Made by a program: the position numbers and the translations under genes
The notes under the pieces: generated by a model
Told to the model about the DNA's origin: nothing
Seen by the model: only the letters and a program-made list of their open reading frames with translations
Databases searched by the model: none
In this document: positions 1-48,711 of the stretch, one piece after another
Position numbering within the stretch: the stretch's first letter is position 1
Layout of the letters: the number at the start of each line of letters is the position of its first letter
Virus record (IMG/VR): IMGVR_UViG_3300025519_000005
Location: 1-50,077 of that record
Strand: one strand, 5' to 3'
DNA length: 50,077 bases
Origin: a virus
Lineage: Duplodnaviria; Caudoviricetes

Positions 1-66
1 CAGGATTGACCCGAGTACGGCTGCTTCGGCAGAAAGGTCAGTCAGGTTCGAAGTCGTATGGGTCAC
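1..66 (-). CDS. dnaB: Replicative DNA helicase DnaB, N-terminus (truncated by window)
   Basis: GTG at 66 gives MTHTTSNLTDLSAEAAVLGSIL, the typical DnaB N-terminal motif; overlaps the end of the initiator gene. Confidence 0.7.
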   Translation of the reverse strand, partial: MTHTTSNLTDLSAEAAVLGSIL

Positions 67-835: not shown

Positions 836-841
836 TCGGCA

Positions 842-2269: not shown

Positions 2270-3222
2270 GGTTCAAACCCCGCCAGCAGGTCGTCGTCAT
2301 CTGTCGCTTGCGCCGCCTTCTTGGCGATGTCCAGGTCCATGAGTTTCAGAAGCTTGGTCAGTTCAGCCACGGTCGGAGTTTCGCCTTTGACGACGCCTTT
2401 CTCTGCGATGTAGGCGGCTTTGGCGTCTTTACCGGTGATGCCAAGCTCCTTGAACTTGGCGTTCATCTGCTTGCGGAGCTCTTCATATTTGGCGTCGCCG
2501 TCTTCCGGTTGTGCCTGCTGCGGCGGTTCCTGTTGCTTCTGCTCGGCTGCTGCCGCGTTTGCTTCTTCGGTAATGTCCCGGCGTTGCGGTTCATAGGCGG
2601 GAATGTCTCCACCTACCGGCTGGAAGTCTTGGTCATTCAGGTCGATGCCGAATTGGCCTTTGTACGCCCGTTTGAGCATGTGCTTTTTGAACATGTCCGG
2701 GAAGAAACCGCTGTTCCACATGTGAGCGTTGAACCCTTTTTTCATGTGTTCGACTTCTTCCACGTCCATCAGCACCACGAACGGGCGGAAGCCTTCGCGA
2801 TAGGCGATTGCATAGCCGCCAATGATTCGCCCCCGCGGGAAACCGACTTCGTGTTCAACGATTTGCCATGTGTCGCGCTGTTTGCCATCCGGCCCAATAT
2901 CGATCACCTTTCGAGCCTTGAAGGTGTCGTTTTCGTGGACGAGTTGCACGTCATGGCCTTGGTAGCCTTCTACCTGACGACCTTTGTAAACATAGCCCTC
3001 GGCCTGAATTTGGATCGACAATTTGCCTTTGTATACAACCGGTGTCACATGCCCGTAGAAAGGATTGAGGCCCATGGCGTCCGAAGCACGGACGAAAAAG
3101 CGGAATTGTTCAGGAGTCAGGTCGGCACCGAACATTTGATGCATGATTTGCACATCTTCGGCGCTAAAGCTGCCGATCGCTTGGATAGCGGTTTGGTTTT
3201 TCGGTTGCAAAGCGTTGCTCAT
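2266..3222 (-). CDS. recT: RecT/Bet-family single-strand annealing protein
   Basis: GLNPF, IQIQAEGY, IGGYAIAYR, DMFKKH motifs; RBS AAAGGAGG before the ATG at 3222. Confidence 0.8.
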   Translation of the reverse strand: MSNALQPKNQTAIQAIGSFSAEDVQIMHQMFGADLTPEQFRFFVRASDAMGLNPFYGHVTPVVYKGKLSIQIQAEGYVYKGRQVEGYQGHDVQLVHENDTFKARKVIDIGPDGKQRDTWQIVEHEVGFPRGRIIGGYAIAYREGFRPFVVLMDVEEVEHMKKGFNAHMWNSGFFPDMFKKHMLKRAYKGQFGIDLNDQDFQPVGGDIPAYEPQRRDITEEANAAAAEQKQQEPPQQAQPEDGDAKYEELRKQMNAKFKELGITGKDAKAAYIAEKGVVKGETPTVAELTKLLKLMDLDIAKKAAQATDDDDLLAGFEP

Positions 3223-3224
3223 GC

Positions 3225-3422
3225 TCAAAATCCTCCTTTCGCAGTTTCAAGGCCGCGTTTGACTTGTTTCCGTGCGGTTTCCCAGGCCTTTTCGTAAATT
3301 GCATCCGGGTCCTCGCCCGGCTCTACAGTGATCACCGCGCCGGCATCGACTTTCAGCGATTCGTAGTTTCCGAGGTTCTTTGTGTACATGAAGCCGACGG
3401 AGATTTCTTTGACTTTGCTCAT
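3225..3422 (-). CDS. Conserved small phage protein
   Basis: TKNLGNYESLKVDAG motif common in phage recombination modules; coupled to neighbours. Confidence 0.7.
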   Translation of the reverse strand: MSKVKEISVGFMYTKNLGNYESLKVDAGAVITVEPGEDPDAIYEKAWETARKQVKRGLETAKGGF

Positions 3423-3637
3423 CGCTTCGGACCCTCCCCGTTGTAGTAGGTCTTGAACGGCTTACCGCCGCGCTTGGCGATCAGCTTGCGCTCCCGGCGA
3501 CTAAGGAACAGGCCGTAATCGGATTTGATCGCCGAAGAGACGGTTGAAATGCCGAGCGTGCCGGGGATGTACTTTGCTCCTTTCGGTTTAGTCCGCTTGA
3601 ACAGCCAGCGCCGGAAACGACGAATCATACCTTTCAT
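3419..3637 (-). CDS. Hypothetical basic phage protein
   Basis: RBS GAGGGG, ATG at 3637, ATGA overlap with the next gene. Confidence 0.55.
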   Translation of the reverse strand: MKGMIRRFRRWLFKRTKPKGAKYIPGTLGISTVSSAIKSDYGLFLSRRERKLIAKRGGKPFKTYYNGEGPKR

Positions 3638-3648
3638 AGGAATCCCCT

Positions 3649-3765
3649 CTACCAAAATTTTTTGAGGAAGTGCATGGCGACGACGACGAAAAAGACCCAT
3701 ATGGAAATTGTGGAGACGACGGCGATGACATACGTGATAATGGCGGCGATTCTGGCCCATTTCAC
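3649..3765 (-). CDS. Small single-TM membrane peptide (not in ORF track)
   Basis: GGAGG RBS, GTG start; MKWARIAAIITYVIAVVSTISIWVFFVVVAMHFLKKFW. Confidence 0.55.
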   Translation of the reverse strand: MKWARIAAIITYVIAVVSTISIWVFFVVVAMHFLKKFW

Positions 3766-3770
3766 TTCGA

Positions 3771-5300
3771 TCAAGCCTCCGTTTCTATTTTGAGGTCTTG
3801 CTCCGGCACCGCGCGCCCCGTGATCAGTTGGTCATACACAGCGACGCGCCCGGTATAGCTTTCAATGCCGTCAATGAACACCGGAGTGATGAGCTCGCTT
3901 TGCTTGAACAGAACTTCGGCCAGCTCCAGACCTGCCGCGATCTTCTCACCTGCGGACAATACCGCGTAATCTTTTCCGTCCATCTGGATGCTGAAATCCG
4001 GTTCCCATTCGTCTGTAGTTTTGATGTGCTTGAACAAGCGGATGCTCAAGGATGTAAACAGGCTTTGCACCTTTTCGGCTTGCAGTTCGGCCTCTTTGGC
4101 ACGATAGGCCTTGATTGTGTCGAGAATAAAAATTGACTCTTTCAGGCTGGCGAGCGTGGCCGCCTCGTCCGCGCGGGCCTTCTCTACTTCCTGCTCCAGT
4201 TGCTGGCGGCGTTCCTTCTCGCGCACGGCGTCGATGATGGCCTGTTTTGCTTCCTGCCAGCGGCGAATTTGGTCGAGCTTCTCGGAAACGTCGATGTATT
4301 CGAGTGCGGCCAGTTCGGCTTCAAGTTCTTTCCGCTTCGCCACGATTGCGTCGTACTCGGCCTTGAATTCGGATATCCGGCGCTCTTTGTCCGCCTGTGC
4401 TGCCTCAACCGCTTCACCATGCAACGGCTGTTTGCAAACCCGGCATGCGTCGGCGATGGGCTCGGATTGAAGCGTCTGGAACTGCTGCTTCATGCGGTCG
4501 CGCTGCTCCAAAAGGGATTTGATGCGGCTTTGCAGGGCGACGATCTTCCGGTTGTTTTCGTCCGCGCCGGCTGTGGACTTCTCGATTTCAGCGATTGCCG
4601 CATCGATCTTGGCGATGTCTGCTTGCGCCACCTCAATGTCCACGGCGGGCGTCGAATCCAGTAGCGTGAGTTGCTCCTGCAACGTCTTCGTGCGGCTCTG
4701 CGCGGCGATATGCGCCTTTTCGAGCTTCGACTTCTGCCCGCCGGTGCCGCCGTGAATCTTCTGCAAGTCGTCCAGGCTGTGCTTTTTGGTGAGTTCCGCC
4801 AGCTTGGCGGCCACTGGTTCCGGCAGATGTTTGAGCACTTCGGACTTCGCGGGCGGCGTCGTGTACCGCAAGATCATTTCCCGCTGCTTTGTCCAATGCA
4901 GACCGAAAAAGTATTGCGGGTTGTAAAGGGAGAGAAATTCGTCGCGATTAAACAGGCTGGCGACGGCGGCCTCGTACTCTTTGGCTTTGGTCGGCACGTC
5001 GTTGATATAGAAGGCGTTCGTGCCCATATCGATCTCGCGGGCGAATTTGATTTGAACGCCGTCAACGGACAGGAGCAGCGACGCGAACACGCGGTCAAAT
5101 TCGTAATTGACGGGCGACGGGTTGAACTTGCTACCGAACAAGTCCGTGCCCCAAAACACCCATGCCGGCGCGGTGCCGATGCTGGTTTTGCCTTGGCCGT
5201 TGCGGCCGGACAGGCGAGTGACGTTGCCGAATTTGACCGTCCGGCTACGGTGTGACGTGAAATTGATGAGTTCGAGTTCAAGAAAACGGATATGTCGCAT
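3771..5300 (-). CDS. SMC/Rad50-like ATPase with zinc hook
   Basis: Walker A GRNGQGKTS, coiled coil, CRVC hook, LSAGE signature, VFIDGIE Walker B. Confidence 0.9.
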   Translation of the reverse strand: MRHIRFLELELINFTSHRSRTVKFGNVTRLSGRNGQGKTSIGTAPAWVFWGTDLFGSKFNPSPVNYEFDRVFASLLLSVDGVQIKFAREIDMGTNAFYINDVPTKAKEYEAAVASLFNRDEFLSLYNPQYFFGLHWTKQREMILRYTTPPAKSEVLKHLPEPVAAKLAELTKKHSLDDLQKIHGGTGGQKSKLEKAHIAAQSRTKTLQEQLTLLDSTPAVDIEVAQADIAKIDAAIAEIEKSTAGADENNRKIVALQSRIKSLLEQRDRMKQQFQTLQSEPIADACRVCKQPLHGEAVEAAQADKERRISEFKAEYDAIVAKRKELEAELAALEYIDVSEKLDQIRRWQEAKQAIIDAVREKERRQQLEQEVEKARADEAATLASLKESIFILDTIKAYRAKEAELQAEKVQSLFTSLSIRLFKHIKTTDEWEPDFSIQMDGKDYAVLSAGEKIAAGLELAEVLFKQSELITPVFIDGIESYTGRVAVYDQLITGRAVPEQDLKIETEA

Positions 5301-5309
5301 GTGCCCCTC

Positions 5310-5660
5310 CTACAGCCCGAGGCTGATTTTCAGTTTTTCGTTGACTTCCCGCATGATCGACGGCGGCAGTGTCGCAACCGGCCGGATCAACAGGCTTTTG
5401 TCGATGGTCCGCAAGTGCTCCAGCATGATCGTCGAATCGCTCCGAAGTCCGCACAAGATGCGCTTGACGAAGACGTGCGTTGTTGTGAATCGCTTTTTGC
5501 CGCTCGTGATGGAGGACACAATAACGACCGGACTGTGTTCGTTGCCGGTGTCGTTTTGCACGACGAGAACCGGACGTTTTCCGCGCTGCTCACTGCCGCT
5601 CGGACTGCCGAGGTCTGCGATCCAGATTTGGCCACGGCGGGGAAAGATGGTGTTATTCAT
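5310..5660 (-). CDS. mazF: PemK/MazF-family endoribonuclease (EndoA-like), orphan
   Basis: RRGQIWIADL..GSEQRGKRPVLVVQND..SSITS..THV..DSTIMLEHLRTIDK; RBS GGAAGGTG. Confidence 0.9.
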   Translation of the reverse strand: MNNTIFPRRGQIWIADLGSPSGSEQRGKRPVLVVQNDTGNEHSPVVIVSSITSGKKRFTTTHVFVKRILCGLRSDSTIMLEHLRTIDKSLLIRPVATLPPSIMREVNEKLKISLGL

Positions 5661-5682
5661 TCTGGCGTTCACCTTCCATTCG

Positions 5683-5738
5683 TGGTACAATGACCACAAC
5701 CTAGTTTGGTTTGGCCGCTCTCGAAGGCGGCTTTTTTA
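5683..5738 (+). ncRNA. Putative short antisense transcript upstream of mazF
   Basis: Extended -10 TGGTACAAT (5683-5691), then hairpin GCCGC-TCTCGAAG-GCGGC plus TTTTTT on the + strand. Confidence 0.35.
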
Positions 5739-6014
5739 TAGGTCTGCGAGTTCTTGTTCGAGGCGGGCGATTTCGTCAGAGATCGCTTTTTCGAGAAATG
5801 CTTGAATCTCGTCGATGATTCGTTTGTGGTGAATTCGTTCGTTGTTATATCCCGGATGTAGCGTGAATTTATGGTTGTTTTGTTTGTCTGAAAATTCGAT
5901 TCGTCCGATTTTCGAGACATGTTCGAGTTTTTCTTTCAACTCATCAATTTTGTTTGCGATTTCTCTCCCCTGTTTCGCCCTCCGCTCCATGTATTCAAGC
6001 GTCTTTCTGTCCAT
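5736..6014 (-). CDS. Hypothetical coiled-coil phage protein
   Basis: RBS GGGGGTG, MDRKTLEYMERRAK...ARLEQELADL. Confidence 0.65.
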   Translation of the reverse strand: MDRKTLEYMERRAKQGREIANKIDELKEKLEHVSKIGRIEFSDKQNNHKFTLHPGYNNERIHHKRIIDEIQAFLEKAISDEIARLEQELADL

Positions 6015-6165
6015 GTTCCGTTTCACCCCCTTCCCAGGCTTCTACCGGAATCCGGTAATATTCGGCGTTGTATACGTCCGTGATTTCACCGCGCGAAACG
6101 TAGATTCTGCCGTTTTCGATGCGCGTTACCCGGCCGCTCTCGATTGGGATTTTTCCGACAATCAC
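5995..6165 (-). CDS. Small hypothetical protein (not in ORF track)
   Basis: RBS AAAGGAG, GTG start, MIVGKIPIESGRVTRIENGRIYVSRGE..., 56 aa. Confidence 0.5.
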   Translation of the reverse strand: MIVGKIPIESGRVTRIENGRIYVSRGEITDVYNAEYYRIPVEAWEGGETEHGQKDA

Positions 6166-6257
6166 CTGCTACGCTCCTTTCTGATGATGTTTTTCACGAT
6201 CACCGCATGTTGTAGCGGATTGTGCCACCAAAGACGGGCCAGTTCGGGGAGTGTCAT
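6162..6257 (-). CDS. 31-aa hypothetical peptide (not in ORF track)
   Basis: ATGA/GTGA overlaps at both ends; MTLPELARLWWHNPLQHAVIVKNIIRKERSR. Confidence 0.4.
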   Translation of the reverse strand: MTLPELARLWWHNPLQHAVIVKNIIRKERSR

Positions 6258-6514
6258 ATCATCTTCGCCTCCAATTCGTCGATTTGGCGGCATAAGTCTT
6301 GTTCCCATTCCATGTCGCCCGCCATGTAAGCAATAAATGCAAGGTTTTTCAACTCATCGAGCCTTTGTACGATGTTCGCATTGACTTCGAGGCAATGCGT
6401 CACCTCGATCTGCTCCGACGTGCTCAGCCATTGATAGCCGCCGAGCCTTCGGGCTTTCATGGTGAGTTCGGCCAATCGGCGGTGGACTGCGTGGATTGCT
6501 AGCATATGGATCAT
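6254..6514 (-). CDS. Conserved Paenibacillus-phage-type hypothetical protein
   Basis: IHAVHRRLAEL...HCLEVNA...LKNLAFIAY..DMEW; ATGA overlap with the antirepressor. Confidence 0.65.
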   Translation of the reverse strand: MIHMLAIHAVHRRLAELTMKARRLGGYQWLSTSEQIEVTHCLEVNANIVQRLDELKNLAFIAYMAGDMEWEQDLCRQIDELEAKMI

Positions 6515-7266
6515 CCTTTCGCAAGCAAGAGCCGGAACGTCTCGCGTCCCTTCGGCGTGATGAGTGTCTGAACGCCGGTCTTCTCTCCCCGTCCCCACTC
6601 TTTGATCTGGAATAGTTCAGGCACGTATTGGGCATAGGGCTTGAGCTGTTGCTTCTGGTCACGGTATACATATCCGCGGTCCAGCAACCAAGCGATGAAG
6701 TCGCGTTCCTTCACTTTCAGTTCTTTCGCCGTGTCTCGGAAGTTGGTCAGCAGATTCCGATCGACCAGCGCATCGAAATAGTCGGCCTTGGGGCGCATTG
6801 CTGCGATCTGTTCGTTCTGTTTCCGCACCAGCGCGAGCGTCGACCGGAACATGGAGCGCGTTTCTACGTCAGCGTGCGGCAGATATGTCTCGATGAACAG
6901 ATCGTCGTTTGCCACGTAGCCGCCGGTTCGGCGAATGGTAGGCAGGACTTCGCTGGTGACCCAGCGCTTGAACTCTTTGGCTTTGGCCTTGATTTCCGTG
7001 TTGTTGCCTTGCTTCGCCGCCCCAAACACCAGGCTGTAGAGGCCGGATTCATTGACGAACTTCTTCTGCTGCGTTCTGCCGAGCGAGTCGATGACCTCCC
7101 GGTCCGTTAGGTCATCCTCATCAACGTGATTCGGGATTGCGGTATAGGGATTGGAAAACCCCAGTGCCTTCGCTGCTTCCGTCGCTCCGAACCACTCCGT
7201 GCCGTTCACTACAACAACCGGCAACTCGCCGAACGTCTGATGATTGAAAATTTGCGGTTTATTCAT
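6511..7266 (-). CDS. Phage antirepressor (BRO-N plus KilAC/ANT)
   Basis: FVNESGLYSLVF, AKEFKRWVTSEVLPTIRRTGGY, PKADYFD, QTLITPKGR. Confidence 0.92.
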   Translation of the reverse strand: MNKPQIFNHQTFGELPVVVVNGTEWFGATEAAKALGFSNPYTAIPNHVDEDDLTDREVIDSLGRTQQKKFVNESGLYSLVFGAAKQGNNTEIKAKAKEFKRWVTSEVLPTIRRTGGYVANDDLFIETYLPHADVETRSMFRSTLALVRKQNEQIAAMRPKADYFDALVDRNLLTNFRDTAKELKVKERDFIAWLLDRGYVYRDQKQQLKPYAQYVPELFQIKEWGRGEKTGVQTLITPKGRETFRLLLAKG

Positions 7267-7269
7267 AGG

Positions 7270-7617
7270 TCACCATCCTTTCGTCAGATTTTTGATGATG
7301 CATCTCAAGCTTTGAATTTCCTCGCGAAGACGGGCGTTTTCTTCCTGTAACCTTCGTAATTCGTTTTCATGGCAAGAATTCGTTTTAACTGGCGCTTCTT
7401 CGCGAGCGACATAGCCTGCTGCCTTCATCAACTCGTCAATACTCAATTGCAGTGCTGATGATAAGGCGACTAACGTATCGGCATCGGGTTTTTGGTTTCC
7501 ATTCTCCAATCTGCAAATGGTCGCTGCGCTAATTCCGGTGGCTTTACTCAATCCGATTTGCCTCCGAAATCCTGCCTTTCTCCTTGCGTCACGGAGAAAA
7601 TCGCCGAAGTCGTTCAA
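7270..7617 (-). CDS. XRE-family HTH regulator with coiled-coil tail
   Basis: FGDFLRDAR..LSKATGISAATICRLENGNQKP; RBS GGAGGGAGG, TTG start. Confidence 0.85.
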   Translation of the reverse strand: MNDFGDFLRDARRKAGFRRQIGLSKATGISAATICRLENGNQKPDADTLVALSSALQLSIDELMKAAGYVAREEAPVKTNSCHENELRRLQEENARLREEIQSLRCIIKNLTKGW

Positions 7618-7844
7618 CTTCCTCCCTCCTTCTGTAAACTTTGTGCAACATCGTCAACAAAAAAAATTTCCCTCGGGTCACGGTTGAAGACATTGGCGAT
7701 CCGGATGCCGATTTCAATTGATGTGCTCGCCCCGTTTTCAATACCGGATATAGTCGCCCTTGAAACGCCGACCCGTTCCGCCAATTCATCTTGGGTCATA
7801 TCGAACTCTTGGCTTCTTCGCAAATATTTGACGATGTTTTTCAT
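7614..7844 (-). CDS. Cro-like XRE HTH regulator (module A)
   Basis: MTQDELAERVGVSRATISGIENG; divergent from the repressor. Confidence 0.9.
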   Translation of the reverse strand: MKNIVKYLRRSQEFDMTQDELAERVGVSRATISGIENGASTSIEIGIRIANVFNRDPREIFFVDDVAQSLQKEGGS

Positions 7845-7986
7845 TTTTTCCGATCACCTCGCTTTCCGTTGTACACAGTTTACAGCCGAGCGGAGTCAAA
7901 GTAAAGTCTGTGCAACAAACTTTTTTTATGTTACAATTTACTTCTTGTACGTTTTGTTTTACAATGTTCGTTGTGTATAGTTTACA
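7633..7986. promoter_or_regulatory. Four 17-bp operator-like repeats (GTTGYACAnAGTTTACA) plus candidate repressor promoter TTTACT-N17-TACAAT
   Basis: Copies at 7633-7649 (reverse), 7868-7884, 7900-7916 (reverse), 7970-7986; promoter at 7937-7965. Confidence 0.65.
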
Positions 7987-8009
7987 ATTTGAAGGAGTGT
8001 TTTAAAAAA

Positions 8010-8462
8010 ATGAGTAATGACCTTGGGAATTACTTGAGAAAATTGAGAGGAAAACGATCGCTTCGAGATGTAGCAGAGCGCACCGGATTAAGTCATACAT
8101 ATATAGCGGATGTGGAAAATGGATTTAGGAGAGGGTCGAATAAGCCAATCAAGCCCACTCCGGAGACGTTGAAAAAGCTTTCTGAAGCATATGGAGGCGG
8201 TGAGTATACGAATCTTATGGTGTTGGCTGGATATTGGCCGGAGGACGAACTTCTTGAGCCAAAAGATAAGATATTGCAAAATGATAAAAAAGAAAGCCCC
8301 TCCGCCTACACAGCGAAAGAGCTTTCAGAAATTCCGATCGAAGAACTTGCGAATCACACACTCACCTATAAGGGGCATGTCCTGTCGGAAGACGAGAAGC
8401 GGCAGTTTTTGACGATCCTGAAAGCTGCGGAGGCGATGATCGAGAAGAATCGAGGATCGTGA
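8010..8462 (+). CDS. CI-like XRE repressor (module A), no S24 autoprotease domain
   Basis: RBS GAAGGAG, ATG at 8010; SLRDVAERTGLSHTYIADVENG HTH; 150 aa. Confidence 0.9.
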   Translation: MSNDLGNYLRKLRGKRSLRDVAERTGLSHTYIADVENGFRRGSNKPIKPTPETLKKLSEAYGGGEYTNLMVLAGYWPEDELLEPKDKILQNDKKESPSAYTAKELSEIPIEELANHTLTYKGHVLSEDEKRQFLTILKAAEAMIEKNRGS

Positions 8463-8547
8463 TGCTTTCGAGGTATTCGGTCGCTTTTGTGGTATTGATG
8501 CCCTGCGAACGCAACATACTCAGATAAATCTCTAAGTCTATCGTCAC
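8362..8547 (-). CDS. Small ORF downstream of an SOS box, convergent with and overlapping the repressor 3' end
   Basis: RBS AGAAGGAAGGGG, GTG start; upstream extended -10 TGGTATATT (8595-8587) and LexA box. Confidence 0.5.
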   Translation of the reverse strand: MTIDLEIYLSMLRSQGINTTKATEYLESITILDSSRSSPPQLSGSSKTAASRLPTGHAPYR

Positions 8548-17841: not shown

Positions 17842-18291
17842 TTATATTTTAGCGAGAAGCTCTTTCTTCTTCTCGTTAAATTCATCCTCAGTTAAATGTC
17901 CGTTTTCCTTTAGTTTTGCCAATTTCTCTATTTCATCAGCGACAGATACATGTACCGGAGCAGTTAATGGCTTCGATTTTCTCCGCTCGATTTCATCCTT
18001 CAATTTTTCAAACGCTTCGTTTGATTTACTCGTAAATACAACGGCGTTTTCATCATTTACCGCTTCTTTAAGATTTCCTTGCTTTTCTACTGCTCCACCA
18101 AAACAGAACTTGATAAATCCATTTCCAGTAAAAAATGAAGCCCGTTTAAATTGTACTGATGTAATTGCGTTGATCGGAATCGTCTTATCACCGGAAAACC
18201 CTTTAGATACAACAGCTAAAAAACCTTTTCGTTTGATTATTACAGAGGAATCAGTTAGCTCGATCTGGCCATTTAGTCCTGTTACAAACAT
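17842..18291 (-). CDS. AT-rich moron, DUF4429-like plus C-terminal SHOCT
   Basis: GDKTIPINAITSVQFK..GFIKF; SVADEIEKLAKLKENGHLTEDEFNEKKKELL; own extended -10 (18326-18334) and downstream hairpin (17814-17831). Confidence 0.8.
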   Translation of the reverse strand: MFVTGLNGQIELTDSSVIIKRKGFLAVVSKGFSGDKTIPINAITSVQFKRASFFTGNGFIKFCFGGAVEKQGNLKEAVNDENAVVFTSKSNEAFEKLKDEIERRKSKPLTAPVHVSVADEIEKLAKLKENGHLTEDEFNEKKKELLAKI

Positions 18292-22666: not shown

Positions 22667-23635
22667 TTACGCCAGTTTGTGCACGAATTTCACAATCCGG
22701 ATCGCCTTCGGTTCGTACACACGGCTCCAGTTGTCGGCCGTCGCCAGTTCCGTGTTAGTCGGCGACACGCCGGCCACGTCAGCAGAAGTGAATCGCACGC
22801 CGCGCGGATGCAGAATGAACGTGCGCCGGTTGATCAGGTAGTCTTCACCGGCAAGCGTATCGCGGTCCGTTTCCGTCGGGACGAATCCGACCGGATTGCC
22901 CTCACCATATGCGACAGCACCAGGGCCGAACAGGTACGTCGTGTACGTGCCGGTACCCGAATCGAACGGCACGCCGTCATCAGGGATGACCCGCTTACCG
23001 AGAAACATCGGCACTTCAGTCGAGCCGGAGGACGGTTTCACATATTCGATCAGATCCTGCTTGGCAAGTTCGGCCTCCGTCGCGCTGTGCATGACGATGG
23101 CTGTCAGTTGAGCCTTGGCGTCGCCCAGCCTTTGCGCTGCATCGACTGTCGTCTTGGCGCTGATGACAGCTGCGTCTCCGGTCTCGCTCGAGATGTCATG
23201 GACGTTGTTCGTCATGGACGATGCCGCGAACACGCCCGTCAGCGTTGCGATCAGTGCGGCCTGATACCGGCGCGCCCAGTACGCGGCCACCAGATCAGCG
23301 ATTGCCCGCATCGGATCGTCGCCGGCCAGGTTGGCGGCCAGATCGTTTGCGCCCCATGCGCGGCCGCGACGCAAGATGACGGCCTCATCTTGACTTGCTT
23401 GAATCTTTCCGGGTGTCAGCGCACCGGTGTCGGAAAGGACTTCATCCTCGCCCGTCAGGTCGCCCCAGAACGGCATGTTCACCGTTTTGGCTGCCTGGCT
23501 GGCCAGTCGGTCGAACTCCTGCGTCCGCTGCGCGATGCCGGACTGGAAGATCGCGGACAGTTCCATCGTCCGCTGAATGACGTAAGGATTGAATACTTCA
23601 GGTACAATGACATCTGCAATTTTCGTCACAGGCAT
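22667..23635 (-). CDS. Major capsid protein (SPP1 gp13-like)
   Basis: TKIADVIVPEVFNPY, NMPFWGDL, AGDDPM, MHSAT, HPRGV. Confidence 0.92.
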   Translation of the reverse strand: MPVTKIADVIVPEVFNPYVIQRTMELSAIFQSGIAQRTQEFDRLASQAAKTVNMPFWGDLTGEDEVLSDTGALTPGKIQASQDEAVILRRGRAWGANDLAANLAGDDPMRAIADLVAAYWARRYQAALIATLTGVFAASSMTNNVHDISSETGDAAVISAKTTVDAAQRLGDAKAQLTAIVMHSATEAELAKQDLIEYVKPSSGSTEVPMFLGKRVIPDDGVPFDSGTGTYTTYLFGPGAVAYGEGNPVGFVPTETDRDTLAGEDYLINRRTFILHPRGVRFTSADVAGVSPTNTELATADNWSRVYEPKAIRIVKFVHKLA

Positions 23636-23641
23636 TCAAAA

Positions 23642-24286
23642 TCAACCTCCAGCAGTGGATTGAAGTTGTTTCGCAAGCTCCGGATTCTCCCGAAGGATTC
23701 GAGCTTGCTCAGTCAAATTGAACGTTTCCTTCGCCCACGGGTTCTTGATTCCGCTGCCCGTGGAATCCCGGCCGTCAGCCGGCGTGGCGCCCTTGAAATG
23801 CGGCCCTTTGTCGTCTTTCTGTACAAACAAAAAACCCTTGCTTGCGCGCAGGGTTTTCAACTGATCGTCGAGGCCGGCTTTGATATTGCCGTTCTCGTCA
23901 ACCTCGATTTTGGACTTGTCCAGCAGCCCGGCCACCAGATCCGGATCGTGCGCCTGGCCGGCGACCGCCAACTTGATGGCCGTCGTCACCGACATATCGC
24001 GCAGCTTGGCTTCGTACTGCTCAGCCGCGGCTTTGTTGTCGGCCTGCAGCTGCTCGATCTGCTTACGAAGCTCCTCGTTCCCCTCGGCCGCTTTCTTCAA
24101 ATCGACCAGCTGCTTGTCGCGCTCTTTGAGCGCCTCTTCGGCCTGCTTCCGGGCTTCGTTGGCTTCGTCGAATTTGGATTTGGGAATCCAGTTTCCGTCA
24201 GAGACGATGGCGATCTTGTGCTTGTCACCAAGCTTCGCCGTGACCTGATTATACAGGTCCTCTCCCAGCAGTTCTTTCAGATCCAC
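23642..24286 (-). CDS. Scaffolding protein (GP20 family)
   Basis: WIPKSKFDEAN coiled coil, GLDDQL, KNPW..FNLTEQ; GTG start at 24286. Confidence 0.88.
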   Translation of the reverse strand: MDLKELLGEDLYNQVTAKLGDKHKIAIVSDGNWIPKSKFDEANEARKQAEEALKERDKQLVDLKKAAEGNEELRKQIEQLQADNKAAAEQYEAKLRDMSVTTAIKLAVAGQAHDPDLVAGLLDKSKIEVDENGNIKAGLDDQLKTLRASKGFLFVQKDDKGPHFKGATPADGRDSTGSGIKNPWAKETFNLTEQARILRENPELAKQLQSTAGG

Positions 24287-24397
24287 TCTCAACACTCTCC
24301 CGATTAGGTTTTTAAACTGGTAACCCGCCAGCAATCGGCTTCCGTTCAGTTTGACCCCGAACCCTTAAAGAGGGCAATAATCGGGGCCCCGAAAGTC

Positions 24398-24670
24398 TCA
24401 TCCGGAGCCCACAGGTTCGTATTCCGCTTCGAAATCCGCCTGCTTCATGACGCTGATCCGTCCCCCCGCGTCCTTAAAGAGGTAATCGGTCAGATACGCG
24501 ACTGCCACATCATAGGCACCGCGTATGACACGGAGACGCACACCCTCCGGTGTGTAATCGACCGAGATCGGCAGATCGACAAAGTCGATGATCTCGTCGA
24601 TGTGGTCCTTGTCAGTGCTCTCAAACTGGATCGCTTCGACGATAATGCTTTTCTGGTATTGCTCGACCAT
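24398..24670 (-). CDS. Conserved phage hypothetical protein
   Basis: IVEAIQF..DYLFKD..FEAEYE motif; RBS GGAGG. Confidence 0.7.
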   Translation of the reverse strand: MVEQYQKSIIVEAIQFESTDKDHIDEIIDFVDLPISVDYTPEGVRLRVIRGAYDVAVAYLTDYLFKDAGGRISVMKQADFEAEYEPVGSG

Positions 24671-24711
24671 CCCTCCACCTCCAAATTCCCAAGCGTTTGG
24701 GATTTTCGGGT

Positions 24712-24744
24712 AAACAAAAAGCACCCTCGCATTTGCGGGAGTGC
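24712..24744 (-). terminator. Intrinsic terminator after the immunity gene
   Basis: GCACTCCCGC-AAAT-GCGAGGGTGC-TTTTTGTTT on the minus strand. Confidence 0.65.
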
Positions 24745-24747
24745 ATT

Positions 24748-24960
24748 TTATTGCATCTTTTTTTGAATCGATTCCGCTTCCTCGGCTGAAATCACGTCAT
24801 AGTCACTGAAATCACCGATCAGGATGCCGTCGTATCGATCGGAATCTACCCAATCGCCGCCCCGGTATTCCTCAAAGATGCCTTGATTCAAACGGACGAG
24901 CGCGAAAGGAGCCGCTTTCGTTGTACCATATTTGGTTATTGCGTAATACTGCACCTTCAT
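24748..24960 (-). CDS. Putative immunity protein for the MuF toxin (IapK-like)
   Basis: 70 aa acidic protein right after the toxin; QYY..LVRL..G....W..S....I..GDFSDYDVIS.EEA pattern resembles described IapK (recalled, not searched). Confidence 0.75.
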   Translation of the reverse strand: MKVQYYAITKYGTTKAAPFALVRLNQGIFEEYRGGDWVDSDRYDGILIGDFSDYDVISAEEAESIQKKMQ

Positions 24961-24967
24961 CGCCCCC

Positions 24968-26692
24968 TCACTTAATTCTGTCGATGCCGGGCGGTCTTCT
25001 GATCCCGTCTGCAATCTTCAACATTTCCTGCCACAATTCCATTTTACGTTTTTTGGATGTGGAAGACAACCGGTACTCTTCGTATAGCTCGTGCAATTTA
25101 TCTTGCTTGAGATCAAAACTTTCCGGAGTATGGAATTGCAATTCGTACGGTGTGCCATTGGGCGCTATCAGTACGACGTTTATACCGTTGTATGGATTTT
25201 GTGGCTCATTCCAGGAATTTTTTACCTTTTTGACAGTGTGTCCTTCGTTGATAAGATTCAGTATTACAGCCGCATACAGACTGTAGTATCGATCCGGTTC
25301 CGCGACAGCCGTATAGCGTAGCACATCGTTAATCGACTTCGCTACATCCTGGGGCGTCAGCGCAGGGTTTATTTCCAAATCGCGCTCCAAGTCGGTCGTA
25401 ACCTTGCGGATGAATGAGTCGCGCGTTTTGATTCGATAGTCGAGTCCGGCCATCTCCCCGCCCGCATCCGTAACTGCCTTAGTGACCGTGGAAGTTATAT
25501 CGGGCTCGGATGCTGCGATAGACTTGTAGTGTTCATCCAATTCCTCGCGCGCCCCATCAGCCATCTCCCGCGCCGCCTTCTGCCGTTCCTCTGGTGTACT
25601 CGGCGGTTCCACTTGCCGTGTCGTTGGCGGTTCGACTGCCTTCGGCTTGGCCGGCTCCGTGGCCCCAGGCGCGTGTTTCTCCGCCCATTCCTTGTAGGTC
25701 ATATCTCCCGGGACCATATACGTTTTGCCGCCGTCATCCCGCGCTGCGCGCTCGCCGGCCGCAGCATCCTCAAAATACGGGATCGTCGTCGAGCGGCAAT
25801 AGACGTGCAACGGCGGGTAGTTGACTCCGGCCTTTGCCTCACTGATCGGTATGATTTTCCCGTCCATTCCCCTGCAAATCTCCGAAGTGCGTAAATCCAG
25901 CGTCGCAACAAACTTGTATTTCTCGACGCCCATTTCCCGGTACGCGTCCAATCGGGACTGACCGGAGAAAAATGCCGCCTCTGTCCGAATCAAACGGGCC
26001 GCTGCATGCTTGCTCACGTTCATCCGTTCCGCGAAATCGGCGATCACCCGCTCGGCAGGCTCCCCGCGGATCAGGTCCTGCGTCAAAATCGTCTGCAGCT
26101 CGTTGACCAGCTTGTCGCGATCCTTCCAAATGCGCGCTGAGAAATTCGATCCATCCGGCGCCCAAGGCTTGGATAGCACCTTGTCAATCTGGCGATCGTC
26201 GAGCATGGCGAACGACAAGCCAACGCCCGTTCCTTTCTGCAGTTCGTAGACGGATCGGTAATAGCTGTCCTTGTAAATATTCCCGAGCGTGTCCGTCGTG
26301 CCTTTCAGCCGCTTCGCCGCGAGCTGCTCAATTTCATTTCGAAGATGCATCTCGAGCTCTTGCAACCTCGTGATATGCACCTTCGCGCTGGCGTTTTCGA
26401 GCTCGCGCATCCAACGCTGGTCGACGGCGTTCTCGCGGCCGCGCTGAATGTATTCCTCAACGGTCCAACGAAACTCCTTCAGCTCGTTCCGGTCAAGCAA
26501 CTTCCGGGCTTCCGCGAGGCTGATGTCATTGTTTTTGGCCAGCCGCGCATACCAGGCTTCCGTCTGCTTTCTGATCTTAGCAAGGGCTTTCTCATACTCC
26601 TCGTTCTGCTTCCGGATATACTCTTCGCCCTTCGCCAGCATCGCCTCGTTCAGCTGGTCCATCCGGCGCGCCCAGTATTCTTCGGGTTTCAT
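24968..26692 (-). CDS. MuF/SPP1 gp7 minor head protein with C-terminal RelA/SpoT-like (Apk2-type) alarmone synthetase toxin domain
   Basis: MuF motifs RLIRTE, ATLDLRTSEIC, PPLHVYCRST; C-terminal RIKTRDSFIRK, DVLRY, YNGIN, ELQFHT. Confidence 0.88.
   Translation of the reverse strand: MKPEEYWARRMDQLNEAMLAKGEEYIRKQNEEYEKALAKIRKQTEAWYARLAKNNDISLAEARKLLDRNELKEFRWTVEEYIQRGRENAVDQRWMRELENASAKVHITRLQELEMHLRNEIEQLAAKRLKGTTDTLGNIYKDSYYRSVYELQKGTGVGLSFAMLDDRQIDKVLSKPWAPDGSNFSARIWKDRDKLVNELQTILTQDLIRGEPAERVIADFAERMNVSKHAAARLIRTEAAFFSGQSRLDAYREMGVEKYKFVATLDLRTSEICRGMDGKIIPISEAKAGVNYPPLHVYCRSTTIPYFEDAAAGERAARDDGGKTYMVPGDMTYKEWAEKHAPGATEPAKPKAVEPPTTRQVEPPSTPEERQKAAREMADGAREELDEHYKSIAASEPDITSTVTKAVTDAGGEMAGLDYRIKTRDSFIRKVTTDLERDLEINPALTPQDVAKSINDVLRYTAVAEPDRYYSLYAAVILNLINEGHTVKKVKNSWNEPQNPYNGINVVLIAPNGTPYELQFHTPESFDLKQDKLHELYEEYRLSSTSKKRKMELWQEMLKIADGIRRPPGIDRIK
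25041..25069 (-). promoter_or_regulatory. Internal sigmaA-like promoter for the immunity gene
   Basis: TTGTCT-N17-TAAAAT inside the toxin coding region, about 80 bp upstream of the immunity ATG. Confidence 0.5.
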
Positions 26693-28155
26693 TCGTCGTC
26701 ACCGTCGCCGACCTGTTGATCTGGCGGCAATCCGCCGTATGCGGCCGCCGCGGCATCCCGTTGCTTCTGTATCCGGTCCAGCTCCTCCTGCACATCCGTC
26801 ACCCACGGGTGCTGCGCGACGAGCGTTTCCTCCGAGAGGATGCCGACGCTGTTTCGGATGTTCGTGATAGTGTCGGTCTCGTTTATCAAGATGTCGCGGT
26901 TGAGCACGAATTCGACATCCTCGTCCGCGAAGTCCCCGGCGCCAGTGTTGGCCAGGTGAACGTTCACGAACCAGAGCAGCTGCTCGAGGCTCGCCTGGAA
27001 CTCGGTTTCCATGATGTTGGCATCCATGTCGAGATCCGCGTACAGGAATTTCAACGCGATACCCGACTTGTCCCCGCCGAACCGCTCGGACTGGGTGTCC
27101 ACCCCGCGGCCAAACTCGTAAATGTCCTTGCGCAGCCGATCCAGGTGCTTCTCGGTCGCTTCTGTATCGATGTCCAGGCTGAGCGTGTCAACGCCTCCTT
27201 GACCGCCCTCTTCACTGAACACCTTCACAGCCCGATATGTTGCCATGTTGCGCCGGAACTCTCCGAGATCCTGCCCGTCGTAATTTTTGAGCACGAATAT
27301 CGAATTGGGCAGATCCTCCAGGTTGTTCGCATGATCGCTGGTCTTGGCATCGTAATCGTCGACAAGCGATTTCACAACCTGAATAAGCGGTAGTTCCTCG
27401 TCGTTGTACTTGAAGCAGACGAACGGTACGCGCTCCCAGTTGAACCCCTGCTCCTGCCCGTCCTGAACAGCGATGAAATGGCTGCCAACCTCGCCCGCCT
27501 CGACATCCGGAATCAGGCCGCCCTCGCTGAGCACATACCGACGCACGCCGGACGTTTCCCAGAACTCGACCTTCGTAATGATCTTCCGGGTCATTCCTTC
27601 GTAGACCTCGACCTCATACACCCGAATGACAGCATCCAGCTCCGTATGATCGGCATCTCGCCACAGCGGGACGATCTCCTCGGCCGGAATCTTTTTGAAT
27701 GACAGCGCGCCGTTTTCGTCGTAATAGACATGCAGCCAAGCCTTGCCTTTGTTCACAGCTTCTTTCCCGAGATTTTTCAACAACCGCAAAAAAGACTTGT
27801 CGAAGACCGAGTTCAACAGGTCTAGATACTGCTGATTTTCAGTCTGAATACTCAATGGCTTCCCTAACAGATAGCCGACCTTCTGATCGACGAGCTTGCG
27901 GACAAACGCATGGACCAGCTTGTTATTTGCAAGATTGGTGACCTCGACCAGCTCGCCATTCTCACCGATCGCCGTGCGCTTGCGCTGCAGGATGTCGTGA
28001 TCGCCGGCATAATACCGCTGCCCGATCAGCATCCAGTTTCGCTCATCGGACGTAAGCCAGTCGCTGACCTCGAGTTTGACGATCTCCTCAAGGCTCATCG
28101 CTGACCGAGCGCCGGCTTCGACGATATCGATGATACGTTGCGTTTCGGTGGGCAT
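26689..28155 (-). CDS. SPP1-type portal protein
   Basis: NNKLVH..LVDQKVGYLLGKP, VPFVCFKYN, LVDDYD, SGIALKFLY. Confidence 0.93.
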   Translation of the reverse strand: MPTETQRIIDIVEAGARSAMSLEEIVKLEVSDWLTSDERNWMLIGQRYYAGDHDILQRKRTAIGENGELVEVTNLANNKLVHAFVRKLVDQKVGYLLGKPLSIQTENQQYLDLLNSVFDKSFLRLLKNLGKEAVNKGKAWLHVYYDENGALSFKKIPAEEIVPLWRDADHTELDAVIRVYEVEVYEGMTRKIITKVEFWETSGVRRYVLSEGGLIPDVEAGEVGSHFIAVQDGQEQGFNWERVPFVCFKYNDEELPLIQVVKSLVDDYDAKTSDHANNLEDLPNSIFVLKNYDGQDLGEFRRNMATYRAVKVFSEEGGQGGVDTLSLDIDTEATEKHLDRLRKDIYEFGRGVDTQSERFGGDKSGIALKFLYADLDMDANIMETEFQASLEQLLWFVNVHLANTGAGDFADEDVEFVLNRDILINETDTITNIRNSVGILSEETLVAQHPWVTDVQEELDRIQKQRDAAAAAYGGLPPDQQVGDGDDE

Positions 28156-28169
28156 TGGTTTCACCCCTT

Positions 28170-29474
28170 TCAGTTGAACGAAATAGCCGCCGGTCGCATA
28201 ACCACGGTGTTCACGAAATACCGATCGCCGTCCATCTGGTGGTCGTTCTGCTTGATTGGCTTTTCCTCCCCGCGCTCCGCCGCCTTCTCATCCCAGACGT
28301 AAGACGCGAATTCGCGGAACGTTTCCTTGCAGCAGTCGTTATACAGAATTCGTCCGGTATTCAGCGCCGTGGCCATGTTGCGGATGCCCTCCAGCACGTC
28401 ATTGCGTGCTTGCCGGACCGCAAACCGGCCTTTTTTCCGAATCAACGCTATGAACGACGCCGCCGACGGGTCGATAATGATCGCGCGCGGTTGAATGTCT
28501 CCGACGAACTCCTCCAGGTCATGGTAATATTCCTCATCGGTTTTCTGCCGTCCCTTCTGCCGGCCGTCGTAATGATACTCCCGGATCTTGTACCAGGCAC
28601 TTTCAAACTCATGCGGGTTCGCCTTTGACGGCGCCGGGACGTACCCCCACAGCCCAAATGTCATCGGGTTCTGCGTACCGTAGTCGACGCTGACGTAATA
28701 CTGCGAATACGGCCGATCGACGGTCGTCCGGACATGCTTATCCGGGTCGAACATGTCGTAGATGATACCCTCGGCAAGCACCCACAGCCCAAGGATGTAT
28801 CGGCGATAGAACACGCCGCTGTACATCCGCCGATATCGCTCTTTGACGCGCTCGGACAGGCTGAGATTATCGTCCATTGTGAAATGCAGATGCAGCGCAT
28901 GCTTTTTATCAAGTTGATCCAGCCATTCGAGTTTGAACCAATGGAACGGGCCCGCCGGGTTACAGTTAAACCACAATTTAGAGCCATCAACCGAGCACCG
29001 CGCCGTCGCCTGGTTCACAAACGATTGCGGCATGAGCGCGACCTCGTCAAAGAACATGCCCGCGAGCGTAATCCCTTGAATCAGGTCCTGGCTGCGCTCG
29101 TCTTTGCCGCCGAAAAGGAAAAAGTAATTGACCTTGCCGCCGCGCGAGATCACCAGAAGGTTGTCGGCGCGCCGATCATCGACATGATAGCCGCGGCTCA
29201 CAAGCATCTGCTTGAGTGGCCCGATGACGTTCCGGCGTAGCGCCCCGATTGTCTTTCCAGACATGCCGAACTGCTGGCCGTTGAACGACGACATCGCCCA
29301 GACGACATAGCTGAACGACATCGACGCCGTTTTCCCGGCGCGCACGGACCCGTCACAGATGATTGCGTCCTTGTCCCGGTGCGGGCTGCCCGGCATCCAC
29401 CAGGTGAGGACCTGCAGCTGCTTCCGGCTGAACGGATGCCAGCGGAACGATGCTATGCGGCTCATAACGGTCAT
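28170..29474 (-). CDS. terL: Terminase large subunit (PBSX family)
   Basis: DGSVRAGKT Walker A, FFDEVAL, NCNP, DYGTQNP, DPSAAS, NDHQMDGDRY. Confidence 0.95.
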   Translation of the reverse strand: MTVMSRIASFRWHPFSRKQLQVLTWWMPGSPHRDKDAIICDGSVRAGKTASMSFSYVVWAMSSFNGQQFGMSGKTIGALRRNVIGPLKQMLVSRGYHVDDRRADNLLVISRGGKVNYFFLFGGKDERSQDLIQGITLAGMFFDEVALMPQSFVNQATARCSVDGSKLWFNCNPAGPFHWFKLEWLDQLDKKHALHLHFTMDDNLSLSERVKERYRRMYSGVFYRRYILGLWVLAEGIIYDMFDPDKHVRTTVDRPYSQYYVSVDYGTQNPMTFGLWGYVPAPSKANPHEFESAWYKIREYHYDGRQKGRQKTDEEYYHDLEEFVGDIQPRAIIIDPSAASFIALIRKKGRFAVRQARNDVLEGIRNMATALNTGRILYNDCCKETFREFASYVWDEKAAERGEEKPIKQNDHQMDGDRYFVNTVVMRPAAISFN

Positions 29475-29663
29475 CGATACACCAACCGCCCGGACATCTG
29501 TACAAAATCCGTGATTTTGCGAACATGTCCCGCCAGCCGAGCCCGGAAACCAGCCGTTTTCGACCAAAATCCGCGAATTCGATGACGTGGAACATAGCGA
29601 AAAACGGCCAAAAAACGAAAAGTACGATCTCGCGATTTCTTGCGAAATCTCCGTTTTTCGCGA

Positions 29664-48633: not shown

Positions 48634-48678
48634 ACTCGCGCTTCCCCGCCGCGAGGCGGTTGATCATATATGTCTAAC

Positions 48679-48692
48679 CGAACATACATTCG
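48679..48692. promoter_or_regulatory. Possible LexA box upstream of the integrase
   Basis: CGAACATACATTCG, one mismatch in the core, next to the integrase RBS. Confidence 0.5.
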
Positions 48693-48711
48693 CGTGAAAG
48701 GAGAATCTAAA

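Follow-up and report, generated by a model that had tools for sequence, protein, structure and literature searches.

A MuF head protein fused to an Apk2-family alarmone-synthetase domain, paired with an IapK-like immunity gene, in a temperate phage genome

We analysed the 50,077-base virus genome IMGVR_UViG_3300025519_000005 from IMG/VR (CheckV completeness 100%), which at its full length is referred to below as the window. Its head-morphogenesis module encodes a 574-amino-acid (aa) protein in which a MuF/SPP1-gp7 head region is joined through a linker to a RelA/SpoT-type domain, and this gene is followed by an open reading frame (ORF) of 70 aa. The pair very probably represents an Apk2-family MuF polymorphic toxin and its cognate IapK/Tis1-like immunity protein, carried by a temperate, contractile-tailed phage. 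Judged by sequence, the larger protein is confirmed as a head protein of the MuF/SPP1-gp7 kind that ends in an Apk2-family alarmone-synthetase domain, and as a new member of a family that has already been described: one study lists 89 MuF-fused alarmone-synthetase toxins, another lists 39 that are SPP1/MuF-linked, and three have been assayed. An earlier interpretation made from the letters of the window (the sequence-only reading) had proposed a MuF domain, a P/T-rich linker and an Apk2-like synthetase domain, followed by an acidic IapK-like ORF; the comparisons described here bear out these assignments.

Architecture, fold and family of the fusion protein

The features of the fusion protein are as follows.

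24968-26692, minus strand: MuF::toxin ORF (minor head protein plus alarmone-synthetase domain), 574 aa; PHROG family phrog_2841 'minor head protein', E = 3e-125
25679-26692, minus strand: MuF/SPP1-gp7-like N-terminal region, residues 1-338; PF04233 and TIGR01641
25577-25678, minus strand: Pro/Glu/Thr/Ala-rich linker, residues 339-372; recognised by composition, and the 5′ boundary of a variable cassette
24971-25534, minus strand: RelA/SpoT-type (Apk2-family) pyrophosphokinase domain, the putative toxin, residues 387-574

The 574-aa ORF is uninterrupted, and its ATG overlaps the stop codon of the portal gene by 4 nt. Pfam Phage_Mu_F (PF04233) matches residues 198-304 (nt 25781-26101; E = 1.3e-19), and NCBIfam TIGR01641 (phageSPP1_gp7) matches the 574-aa protein with an E-value of 3.4e-28. 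The linker contains 8 Pro, 5 Glu, 4 Thr, 4 Ala and 4 Lys among its 34 residues. When the C-terminal 188 residues were compared with the PDB using phmmer, they matched 8vx3 (deposited as 'SaSAS') with an E-value of 2.5e-17 and 66 bits. This entry is SaEAS, an exported alarmone synthetase of Streptomyces albidoflavus that makes both (p)ppApp and (p)ppGpp (PMC12691689). The match to Tas1 (6ox6) was marginal (E = 0.084, 16 bits), and the domain also matches the C-terminal end of the NCBIfam XopAD/skwp model (E = 1.1e-33).

An AlphaFold2 model of the toxin domain, built from a 33-row alignment, has a mean predicted local distance difference test (pLDDT) value of 96.6. Foldseek comparison of this model with the PDB placed SaEAS (8vx3) first, with a query TM-score (TMq) of 0.83-0.86 and an E-value of 1.6e-13. 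Next came Tas1 (6ox6, TMq 0.62) and the small alarmone synthetases RelP and RelQ (0.55-0.59), followed by the long Rel/RelA enzymes and then CapRel (0.41). The comparison with Tas1, which the sequence-only reading had proposed as a check, thus shows the same fold. We conclude that the C-terminal 188 aa are a RelA/SpoT-type synthetase, a match far beyond chance.

The motifs that had been quoted from the translation are all present: RIKTRDSFIRK at residues 420-430, DVLRY at 456-460, YNGIN at 501-505 and ELQFHT at 517-522. The syn motifs of the domain are at residues 416-430, 456-461, 501-505, 517-522 and 534-541. Every column that is invariant in alignments of 33 and 6 sequences is retained in the 574-aa protein: G416, R420, K422, S426, R429 and K430 in syn1; D456, R459, Y460 and T461 in syn2; Y501, G503 and N505 in syn3; E517, Q519, H521 and T522 in syn4; and H534, Y537, E538 and R541 in syn5. 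For SaEAS, residues D121, R124, K154, N169, E182 and Q184 have been named as the active site (PMC12691689, on SaEAS/Apk1). In the phmmer alignment to 8vx3, D121, R124, N169, E182 and Q184 align with D456, R459, N505, E517 and Q519; the crystallised SaEAS protein is the D121A mutant, and its Ala lies exactly opposite D456. K489 pairs with SaEAS K154 in the pairwise phmmer alignment only and is absent from the invariant columns.

A tblastn search of 50,697 phage records with the toxin domain returned 128 records; in 45 the match extends over at least 80% of the domain. The best matches are the C-termini of 'head morphogenesis' proteins: those of phages of Streptococcus pneumoniae, S. equi, S. 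dysgalactiae and S. pyogenes are 39-41% identical over 97% of the domain (E-values of 1e-33 to 9e-41), that of Mannheimia phage vB_MhS_1152AP2 is 38.8% identical, and those of Pasteurella phages are 35-36% identical. Apk2 toxins have been characterised in the same species (PMC12226406), and we equate the phage records with the assayed proteins by species and gene order. In phmmer comparisons, the streptococcal and Mannheimia phage relatives score 115-145 bits, as against 66 bits for SaEAS. The window's protein is colinear over its full length with the MuF protein of S. pneumoniae phage IPP46 (34% identity, E = 3e-101), and the gene order TerL, portal, MuF::toxin, small ORF is identical in IPP46, Javan180 and vB_MhS_1152AP2. 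Identity, colinearity, intact syn motifs and synteny together uphold the Apk2-like classification that had been suggested.

By first word of the organism name, the 128 records divide into Ralstonia (84), Streptococcus (35), Pasteurella (3), Mannheimia (2), Haemophilus (2) and Aggregatibacter (2). None of the 84 Ralstonia records is among the 40 best rows, and the match of the toxin domain to the XopAD/skwp model may be related to this group.

The motifs described as Apk signatures are RYT in syn2, GxN in syn3 and YH in syn4 (PMC12226406). At these positions the toxin domain has RYT, GIN and FH, and SaEAS has RYT, GLN and FH. Given that the dual-specificity SaEAS has the same RYT/GxN/FH signature, the signature does not define the product. 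Moreover, swapping the Apk signature motifs left specificity unchanged (PMC12226406). It follows that the choice between (p)ppApp and (p)ppGpp is not readable from the sequence, and the caution voiced on this point in the sequence-only reading was warranted.

Domains of this type are widespread and occur on several carriers. When 1.84 billion cluster representatives were searched exhaustively without a profile, 3,494 proteins matched with E-values of 1e-3 or lower, 2,412 at 1e-10 or lower and 72 at 1e-30 or lower. A word-indexed search of proteins of 315-1005 aa gave 33 matches: 24 have PF04233, 6 have no Pfam domain, 2 have PF21725 (a type VII secretion system (T7SS) signal) and 1 has 2H-phosphoesterase domains. 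Among 18 chosen representatives scanned with Pfam, T7SS_signal was found in 2, WXG100_2 in 1, MuF alone in 1, MuF with ADPrib_exo_Tox in 2, VG15 in 1, 2H domains in 1, an intein in 1 and a weak ParB_N match in 1, with nothing detected in the remaining 8. MuF, XopAD, LXG/WXG, DUF4157 and PAAR have been listed as carriers of this synthetase-domain family (PMC12691689). Two MuF proteins, P0037 (913 aa) and P0038 (1151 aa), apparently have serial payloads, with one or two alarmone-synthetase stretches ahead of an ADP-ribosyltransferase domain.

We built a FastTree phylogeny (LG+gamma, midpoint root) from the 228 distinct domain sequences of 263 proteins, having dropped 1 protein without a long domain match and 34 exact duplicates. 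The toxin domain falls in an 11-tip clade with support of 1.0, and all 11 tips match the window's MuF region.

The immunity gene and the Aph1 hydrolase

Immediately downstream of the fusion gene lies the second gene of the pair.

24748-24960, minus strand: predicted IapK/Tis1-like immunity ORF, 70 aa; phrog_3514, hidden Markov model (HMM), BLASTP and complex model

Its ATG lies 7 nt past the MuF stop codon, and its GAGGGGG ribosome-binding site overlaps that stop. The product has 12 acidic and 8 basic residues and an isoelectric point of 4.55. Its sole PHROG match is phrog_3514 (E = 4.2e-7), the family that is also matched by the small ORFs of IPP46, vB_MhS_1152AP2 and Javan180 (E = 2.8e-37, 4.7e-28 and 4.9e-29, respectively). 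In these three reference phages, the MuF::toxin gene is followed by an ORF of 68-72 aa and then by an HD hydrolase of 130-137 aa. An apk2-iapK-aph1 gene order has been described in PMC12226406, which cites the J Mol Biol 2023 paper as the first description of S. pneumoniae Apk2/IapK; the FEBS paper names the small gene iapK. Shared membership of phrog_3514 with the small ORFs that follow Apk2 in the three reference phages substantiates the proposal that the 70-aa acidic ORF is IapK-like.

Other comparisons of the small ORF agree with this assignment. An HMM built from the three reference small ORFs alone recovered it with an E-value of 1.5e-7 among 2,059 ORFs, and BLASTP aligned it with the ORF of IPP46 (29% identity, E = 1e-6) and that of Javan180 (33% identity, E = 2e-8). 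A word-indexed protein search found 4 close relatives besides itself, at 62-76% identity. Pfam returned nothing at E-values up to 10 for either the 70-aa immunity ORF or the 108-aa ORF that comes next. We also surveyed 84 loci, made up of 80 of 379 IMG/VR relatives, three phage records and the window; the survey figures are counts of loci, many of them near-identical, and not of lineages. In 81 of the 84, the toxin gene is followed immediately by an IapK-like ORF.

Eleven full-length toxin-bearing ORFs (460-618 aa; loci L035, L042-L048, L052, L053, L057 and L058) have no phmmer match to the window's MuF region, and L053, L057 and L058 are also without a detectable IapK-like ORF. These loci may differ in carrier, in immunity gene or in both.

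Modelling supports the idea that the small protein binds the toxin domain over its active site. The predicted complex of toxin domain and immunity protein scored 0.82 (runs of 0.82, 0.83 and 0.81), whereas the best of 3 controls scored 0.01; 58 of 80 solved complexes reach the calibration mark, as do 2 of 110 mismatched pairs, figures that are approximate here, as custom alignments were used. The runs share at least 95% of contacts, with a partner pLDDT of at least 88. The predicted interface includes D456, Y501, G503, N505, E517, Q519, H534, Y537 and R541, and hence would cover both the active site and the acceptor site. This modelled interface agrees with the published mechanism of IapK, which is occlusion of the acceptor site (PMC12226406). 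The favourable score may partly reflect prior exposure of the predictor to a similar complex, Tas1-Tis1 (6ox6), which has already been solved. Modelled alone, the immunity protein has a pLDDT of 92. Foldseek found no match to this model in the PDB at E-values of 0.001 or lower, and its comparison with Tis1 (6ox6 chain B) gave an E-value of 1.3 and a TMq of 0.52.

The hydrolase Aph1 is absent from the window, a point that the sequence-only reading had not raised. We found no match to phrog_990, the family of all three reference Aph1 proteins, across the 50-kb record, and no HD domain in a Pfam scan of the record's 74 ORFs. In the survey, an Aph1-like gene is present in 39 of the 84 loci and absent from 45, including the window and all of its close relatives (L023-L034). 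[quoted passage not shown] We conclude that the Aph1-less form is a common variant that has already been noted.

The position occupied by aph1 in the reference phages holds a different ORF.

24398-24670 (from an ATG, the likelier start, behind a GGAGGTGGAGGG site) or from a GTG at 24724: 90/108-aa ORF between terminator and scaffold gene

We considered this ORF as a substitute for Aph1 and rejected it; BLASTP against the Aph1 protein of IPP46 gave an E-value of 1.3. The ORF has weak matches to phrog_419, phrog_1810, phrog_10664 and phrog_4159, the same set as an 87-aa ORF, 'prophage Lp2 protein 33', that follows aph1 in IPP46. No DNA-level conservation of the 24398-24670 ORF was detected in the four related prophage loci L001-L004.

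Cassette boundaries and a possible immunity transcript

Related prophages show that the toxin domain and the immunity gene are exchanged as a unit. In species-representative genomes, 19 of 19 matching loci match only residues 1 to ~336-375 of the fusion protein. The closest genomic MuF homologue, from a Paenibacillus cisolokensis prophage (L001), is 86% identical over residues 1-345, and by blastn the homology to this prophage spans the portal gene and the MuF gene up to position 25622, within the linker. For the four loci L001-L004, 5′ homology stops at 25622-25683. In the P. cisolokensis prophage, DNA homology is absent over the toxin domain and the immunity gene, and resumes at the scaffold gene from 24377. 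The intervening exception is an island of 35-43 nt at 24747-24702, which is 86-88% identical in L001, L003 and L004. This island is a terminator hairpin, the stem of which is invariant in all four sequences (the window, L001, L003 and L004), with a variable loop. The payload of L001 is ADPrib_exo_Tox (E = 3.2e-24), as is that of L002 (E = 2.4e-6); L003 and L004 have an HExxH domain without a Pfam match, each with a different downstream ORF of 57-58 aa. Since the same MuF scaffold bears different toxins in related Paenibacillaceae prophages, we conclude that the toxin-immunity pair is an exchangeable cassette on a conserved MuF carrier, with the linker at its 5′ side and the hairpin at its 3′ side.

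The downstream ORFs of the two Cohnella prophages (L003, 5818-5994; L004, 5819-5992) stop right at the conserved hairpin and have no Pfam match; they are candidate immunity genes of another cassette type. In L001, a draft contig, the MuF::ADP-ribosyltransferase gene (4001-5693) is spread over three reading frames, reflecting either a pseudogene or an assembly error.

The 3′ boundary and its surroundings contain three features that bear on transcription of the immunity gene.

24712-24744, minus strand: intrinsic-terminator-like hairpin (GCACTCCCGC / GCGAGGGTGC) plus T-run; identified by folding, 3′ boundary of the cassette
25041-25069, minus strand: promoter-like site TTGTCT-17 nt-TAAAAT inside the toxin ORF, 81 nt upstream of the immunity ATG; consensus scan
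24752-25022: RNA-contig interval; four RNA libraries, one contig each

The hairpin stem (24721-24744) folds at -17.5 kcal/mol (z = -4.1), and position 24712, the left limit given in the sequence-only reading, is the end of the T-run. A consensus terminator scan did not list the 24721-24744 hairpin, which was seen by folding. We scored terminators across the survey by a rule that calls for a hairpin at least as stable as -7 kcal/mol, with 5 T or more in the next 8 nt, no more than 90 nt from the stop codon. By this rule, a terminator follows the IapK gene in 32 of 43 loci without Aph1, as compared with 0 of 38 loci in which Aph1 comes next. The same rule places a terminator after the Aph1 gene in 8 of 38 loci, and after 11 of 319 other ORFs that lie on the same strand and encode 150 aa or more.

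All 12 loci examined in the window's clade have the promoter-like site in the same place (in one case as TTGCCT), and their toxin ORFs contain no other such site; L034 lacks it. Among five sequences that have diverged at many nearby third-codon positions, both hexamers are unchanged, but the encoded residues are conserved too. When four RNA libraries were compared with positions 23600-28200, each contributed a single contig of 262-271 nt with at least 99% identity, extending from 24752/24761 to 25020/25022. This interval corresponds to the immunity ORF plus ~60 nt upstream; it starts 19-21 nt after the -10 hexamer and ends 4-17 nt before the hairpin. Elsewhere in 23600-28200 these libraries gave no cover, a result that is uninformative on the expression of flanking genes.

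Taken together, these observations give a weak hint, not noted in the sequence-only reading, that the immunity gene is its own transcription unit, with a promoter inside the toxin ORF. We tentatively suggest, at rather less than even odds, that it is an autonomous, moron-like unit in which a promoter in the last 100 nt of the toxin ORF drives transcription and the hairpin terminates it, such that lysogens would make the antidote without the toxin or late proteins. Several points count against this suggestion. The promoter-like site agrees with the consensus at 9 of 12 positions and lies within conserved coding sequence, and it is weak evidence when taken alone, since the scan saw 5 sites in the region where 3.2 were expected. 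The RNA contigs have a depth of 2-3, come possibly from one sampling campaign, and could reflect DNA carry-over. As for precedent, text searches of PMC5576092 and PMC11699363 found no treatment of transcription of MuF-toxin immunity genes, nor, in PMC5576092, of terminators.

Phage setting, proposed mechanism and alternatives

The interval from ~8.7 to 49.9 kb of the window reads as a single temperate phage with nearly all of its genes on the minus strand. The phage is GC-rich, and its host is probably a species of Paenibacillaceae. The MuF::toxin ORF and the two small ORFs lie between the portal and scaffold genes, in the following context.

48670-49914, plus strand: integrase
28170-29567: TerL
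26689-28164: SPP1-type portal
23642-24334: scaffold
22667-23635: major capsid

The gene set also includes CI/Cro-like regulators, replication genes, a sigma-like regulator, a contractile tail with baseplate, and a lysin. An ORF with DUF4429 and SHOCT domains (17842-18291) lies between the tail-assembly-chaperone and tape-measure genes, an unusual insertion for a tail module. Positions 1-8500 hold a second early-type phage gene set on the minus strand, which encodes replication protein O, a metallo-beta-lactamase-fold protein, RecT, an AAA protein, a Bro-N/KilAC antirepressor and helix-turn-helix regulators, as well as a PemK/MazF toxin at 5310-5699 (E = 3.9e-29). Because of this second set, the record may hold part of a neighbouring prophage, or else an unusual second early region.

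We propose that the N-terminal MuF/SPP1-gp7 part serves as a conserved carrier to which the Pro-rich linker joins the 188-aa pyrophosphokinase. The enzyme would most likely transfer pyrophosphate from ATP to the 3′-OH of ATP or ADP, yielding (p)ppApp, and this synthesis would drain the adenylate pool and stop growth. The 70-aa acidic protein would block the enzyme by binding over its acceptor-nucleotide site, as the binding-type antidote alone, with no hydrolase (Aph1) as a second antidote. On this proposal, toxin and immunity gene would move as an exchangeable cassette that runs from the linker to the conserved terminator hairpin. Packaging of the fusion protein in the virion and its delivery on infection, as suggested in the sequence-only reading, are a hypothesis that the present evidence does not support.

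Not all of the evidence favours an Apk2-type toxin with an IapK/Tis1-like partner. Pfam gave zero matches for the 188-aa toxin domain even at E-values up to 10, the RelA_SpoT model missing the domain; Pfam is likewise silent on the C-terminus of the S. pneumoniae phage homologue. The syn4 motif is QFHT, as in SaEAS, whereas the S. pneumoniae, S. equi and M. haemolytica phage proteins have QYHT. In the tree, the three reference phages join the toxin domain only at a 144-tip clade, in which 50 tips have no match to the window's MuF region, and the activity of the characterised enzymes is consequently not transferable by close kinship. For the immunity protein, BLASTP gave no alignment with the small ORF of the Mannheimia phage, and although Tis1 (6ox6_B) came first in a VIA comparison of the immunity model (Z = 3.9, root-mean-square deviation (rmsd) 4.0, 61 residues), it was tied with unrelated rows, and the similarity to Tis1 does not rise above background.

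Several of these points bear on the possibility that the toxin domain behaves like the exported synthetases SaEAS (dual product) or VpEAS/AaEAS (ppGpp only), and not like the adenosine-specific Apk2. The dual-specificity SaEAS is the best solved-structure match and has the QFHT of syn4 in common with the toxin domain. RYT and GxN, given as Apk-specific in PMC12226406, also occur in SaEAS and so do not discriminate between products, a point to which the motif swaps that left specificity unchanged add weight. Furthermore, the phage is without the (p)ppApp-specific Aph1, and the clade of the toxin domain stands apart from the characterised Apk2 domains. However, the MuF-borne enzymes assayed so far make (p)ppApp only, and the toxin domain scores about twice as high against phage Apk2 relatives as against SaEAS. 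Moreover, the absence of Aph1 is common in the family, as the survey and the 'variably present' of PMC10083569 indicate. We regard SaEAS-like or ppGpp-only behaviour as improbable. A more distant alternative is that the domain is a toxic small alarmone synthetase (toxSAS) of the CapRel, FaRel2 or PhRel2 type, which would pyrophosphorylate tRNA and block translation and would not drain nucleotides. The superfamily fold is the same, and CapRel chains appear at rank 18 of the Foldseek list, but their TMq of 0.41 and rmsd of 17.7 compare poorly with the TMq of 0.83-0.86 for SaEAS. The sequence relatives of known activity are nucleotide pyrophosphokinases, and the small downstream protein belongs to the IapK type of immunity protein, a type associated with Apk toxins. 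We consider tRNA modification highly improbable.

The route by which the toxin would reach its target is a separate matter. It could act without virion delivery, either in the producing cell late in infection or, once released at lysis, as an interbacterial or ecological factor, with the immunity protein protecting the producer until lysis. Virion presence and injection are hypotheses for every MuF toxin (PMC10083569, PMC5576092), and Bxa, another MuF toxin, acts outside its producer after release (PMC11699363). On the other hand, gp7 of SPP1 is cited in PMC10083569 as a minor capsid protein that binds the portal, and the MuF::toxin gene adjoins the portal gene. Lone transcription of the immunity gene, if the weak hint of it is real, would protect lysogens against toxin from outside, which fits delivery better than an internal role. 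On balance we think action without virion delivery less likely than not, albeit with an appreciable share of the probability.

An Apk2-type toxin in this position has close counterparts. The Apk2/IapK(/Aph1) modules of S. pneumoniae, Bacteroides caccae, Mannheimia haemolytica and Pasteurella multocida also belong to temperate phages (PMC10083569, PMC12226406). Like them, the locus described here combines MuF, a linker and a ~180-aa RelA/SpoT homologue (RSH)-type synthetase between portal and scaffold, next to a 68-72-aa phrog_3514 ORF. Unlike those modules, it has no Aph1, has QFHT in syn4 and has a toxin domain in its own 11-tip clade, away from the assayed enzymes. With SaEAS (8VX3) the toxin domain shares 31% identity in a structural alignment, the same active-site residues and QFHT; unlike SaEAS, it sits on a MuF carrier and has an immunity gene as its partner. 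Apk1/Tas1-Tis1, a type VI secretion system (T6SS) pair of Pseudomonas aeruginosa (6OX6), has the same fold and a small protein that covers the active site, as is modelled here, whereas the carrier of Tas1 is PAAR/T6SS and not MuF, and the sequence similarity is marginal. MuF polymorphic toxins in general (PMC5576092; Bxa, PMC11699363) have the same conserved MuF carrier, swappable C-terminal toxin and small downstream immunity ORF; in comparison with these, the payload here is an alarmone synthetase, and the 3′ boundary of the cassette is a conserved terminator hairpin. SPP1 gp7 has an N-terminal domain of the same family and a portal-adjacent gene, but no toxin domain.

The locus extends the family of MuF-fused alarmone-synthetase toxins to a GC-rich, probably Paenibacillaceae, contractile-tailed temperate phage with what appears to be a binding-type antidote alone. 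Its toxin domain falls between the assayed Apk2 enzymes on one side and SaEAS, with its dual specificity, on the other, and thus bears on what sets adenosine against guanosine specificity. To a known family, the locus adds modestly, through its cassette boundaries and a possible autonomous transcript of the immunity gene. Such a transcript touches on the purpose of MuF toxins, since an immunity gene that is transcribed alone in lysogens would, if this is true, argue for a toxin that comes from outside. Lysogens would then be immunised against such an incoming toxin, and the locus would provide the first sequence- and transcript-level argument for MuF toxin delivery between cells, for example by sibling virions. 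MuF toxins would in that case act as a kin-discriminating weapon, and the same hairpin would be a fixed 3′ recombination boundary for exchange of the toxin-immunity cassette.

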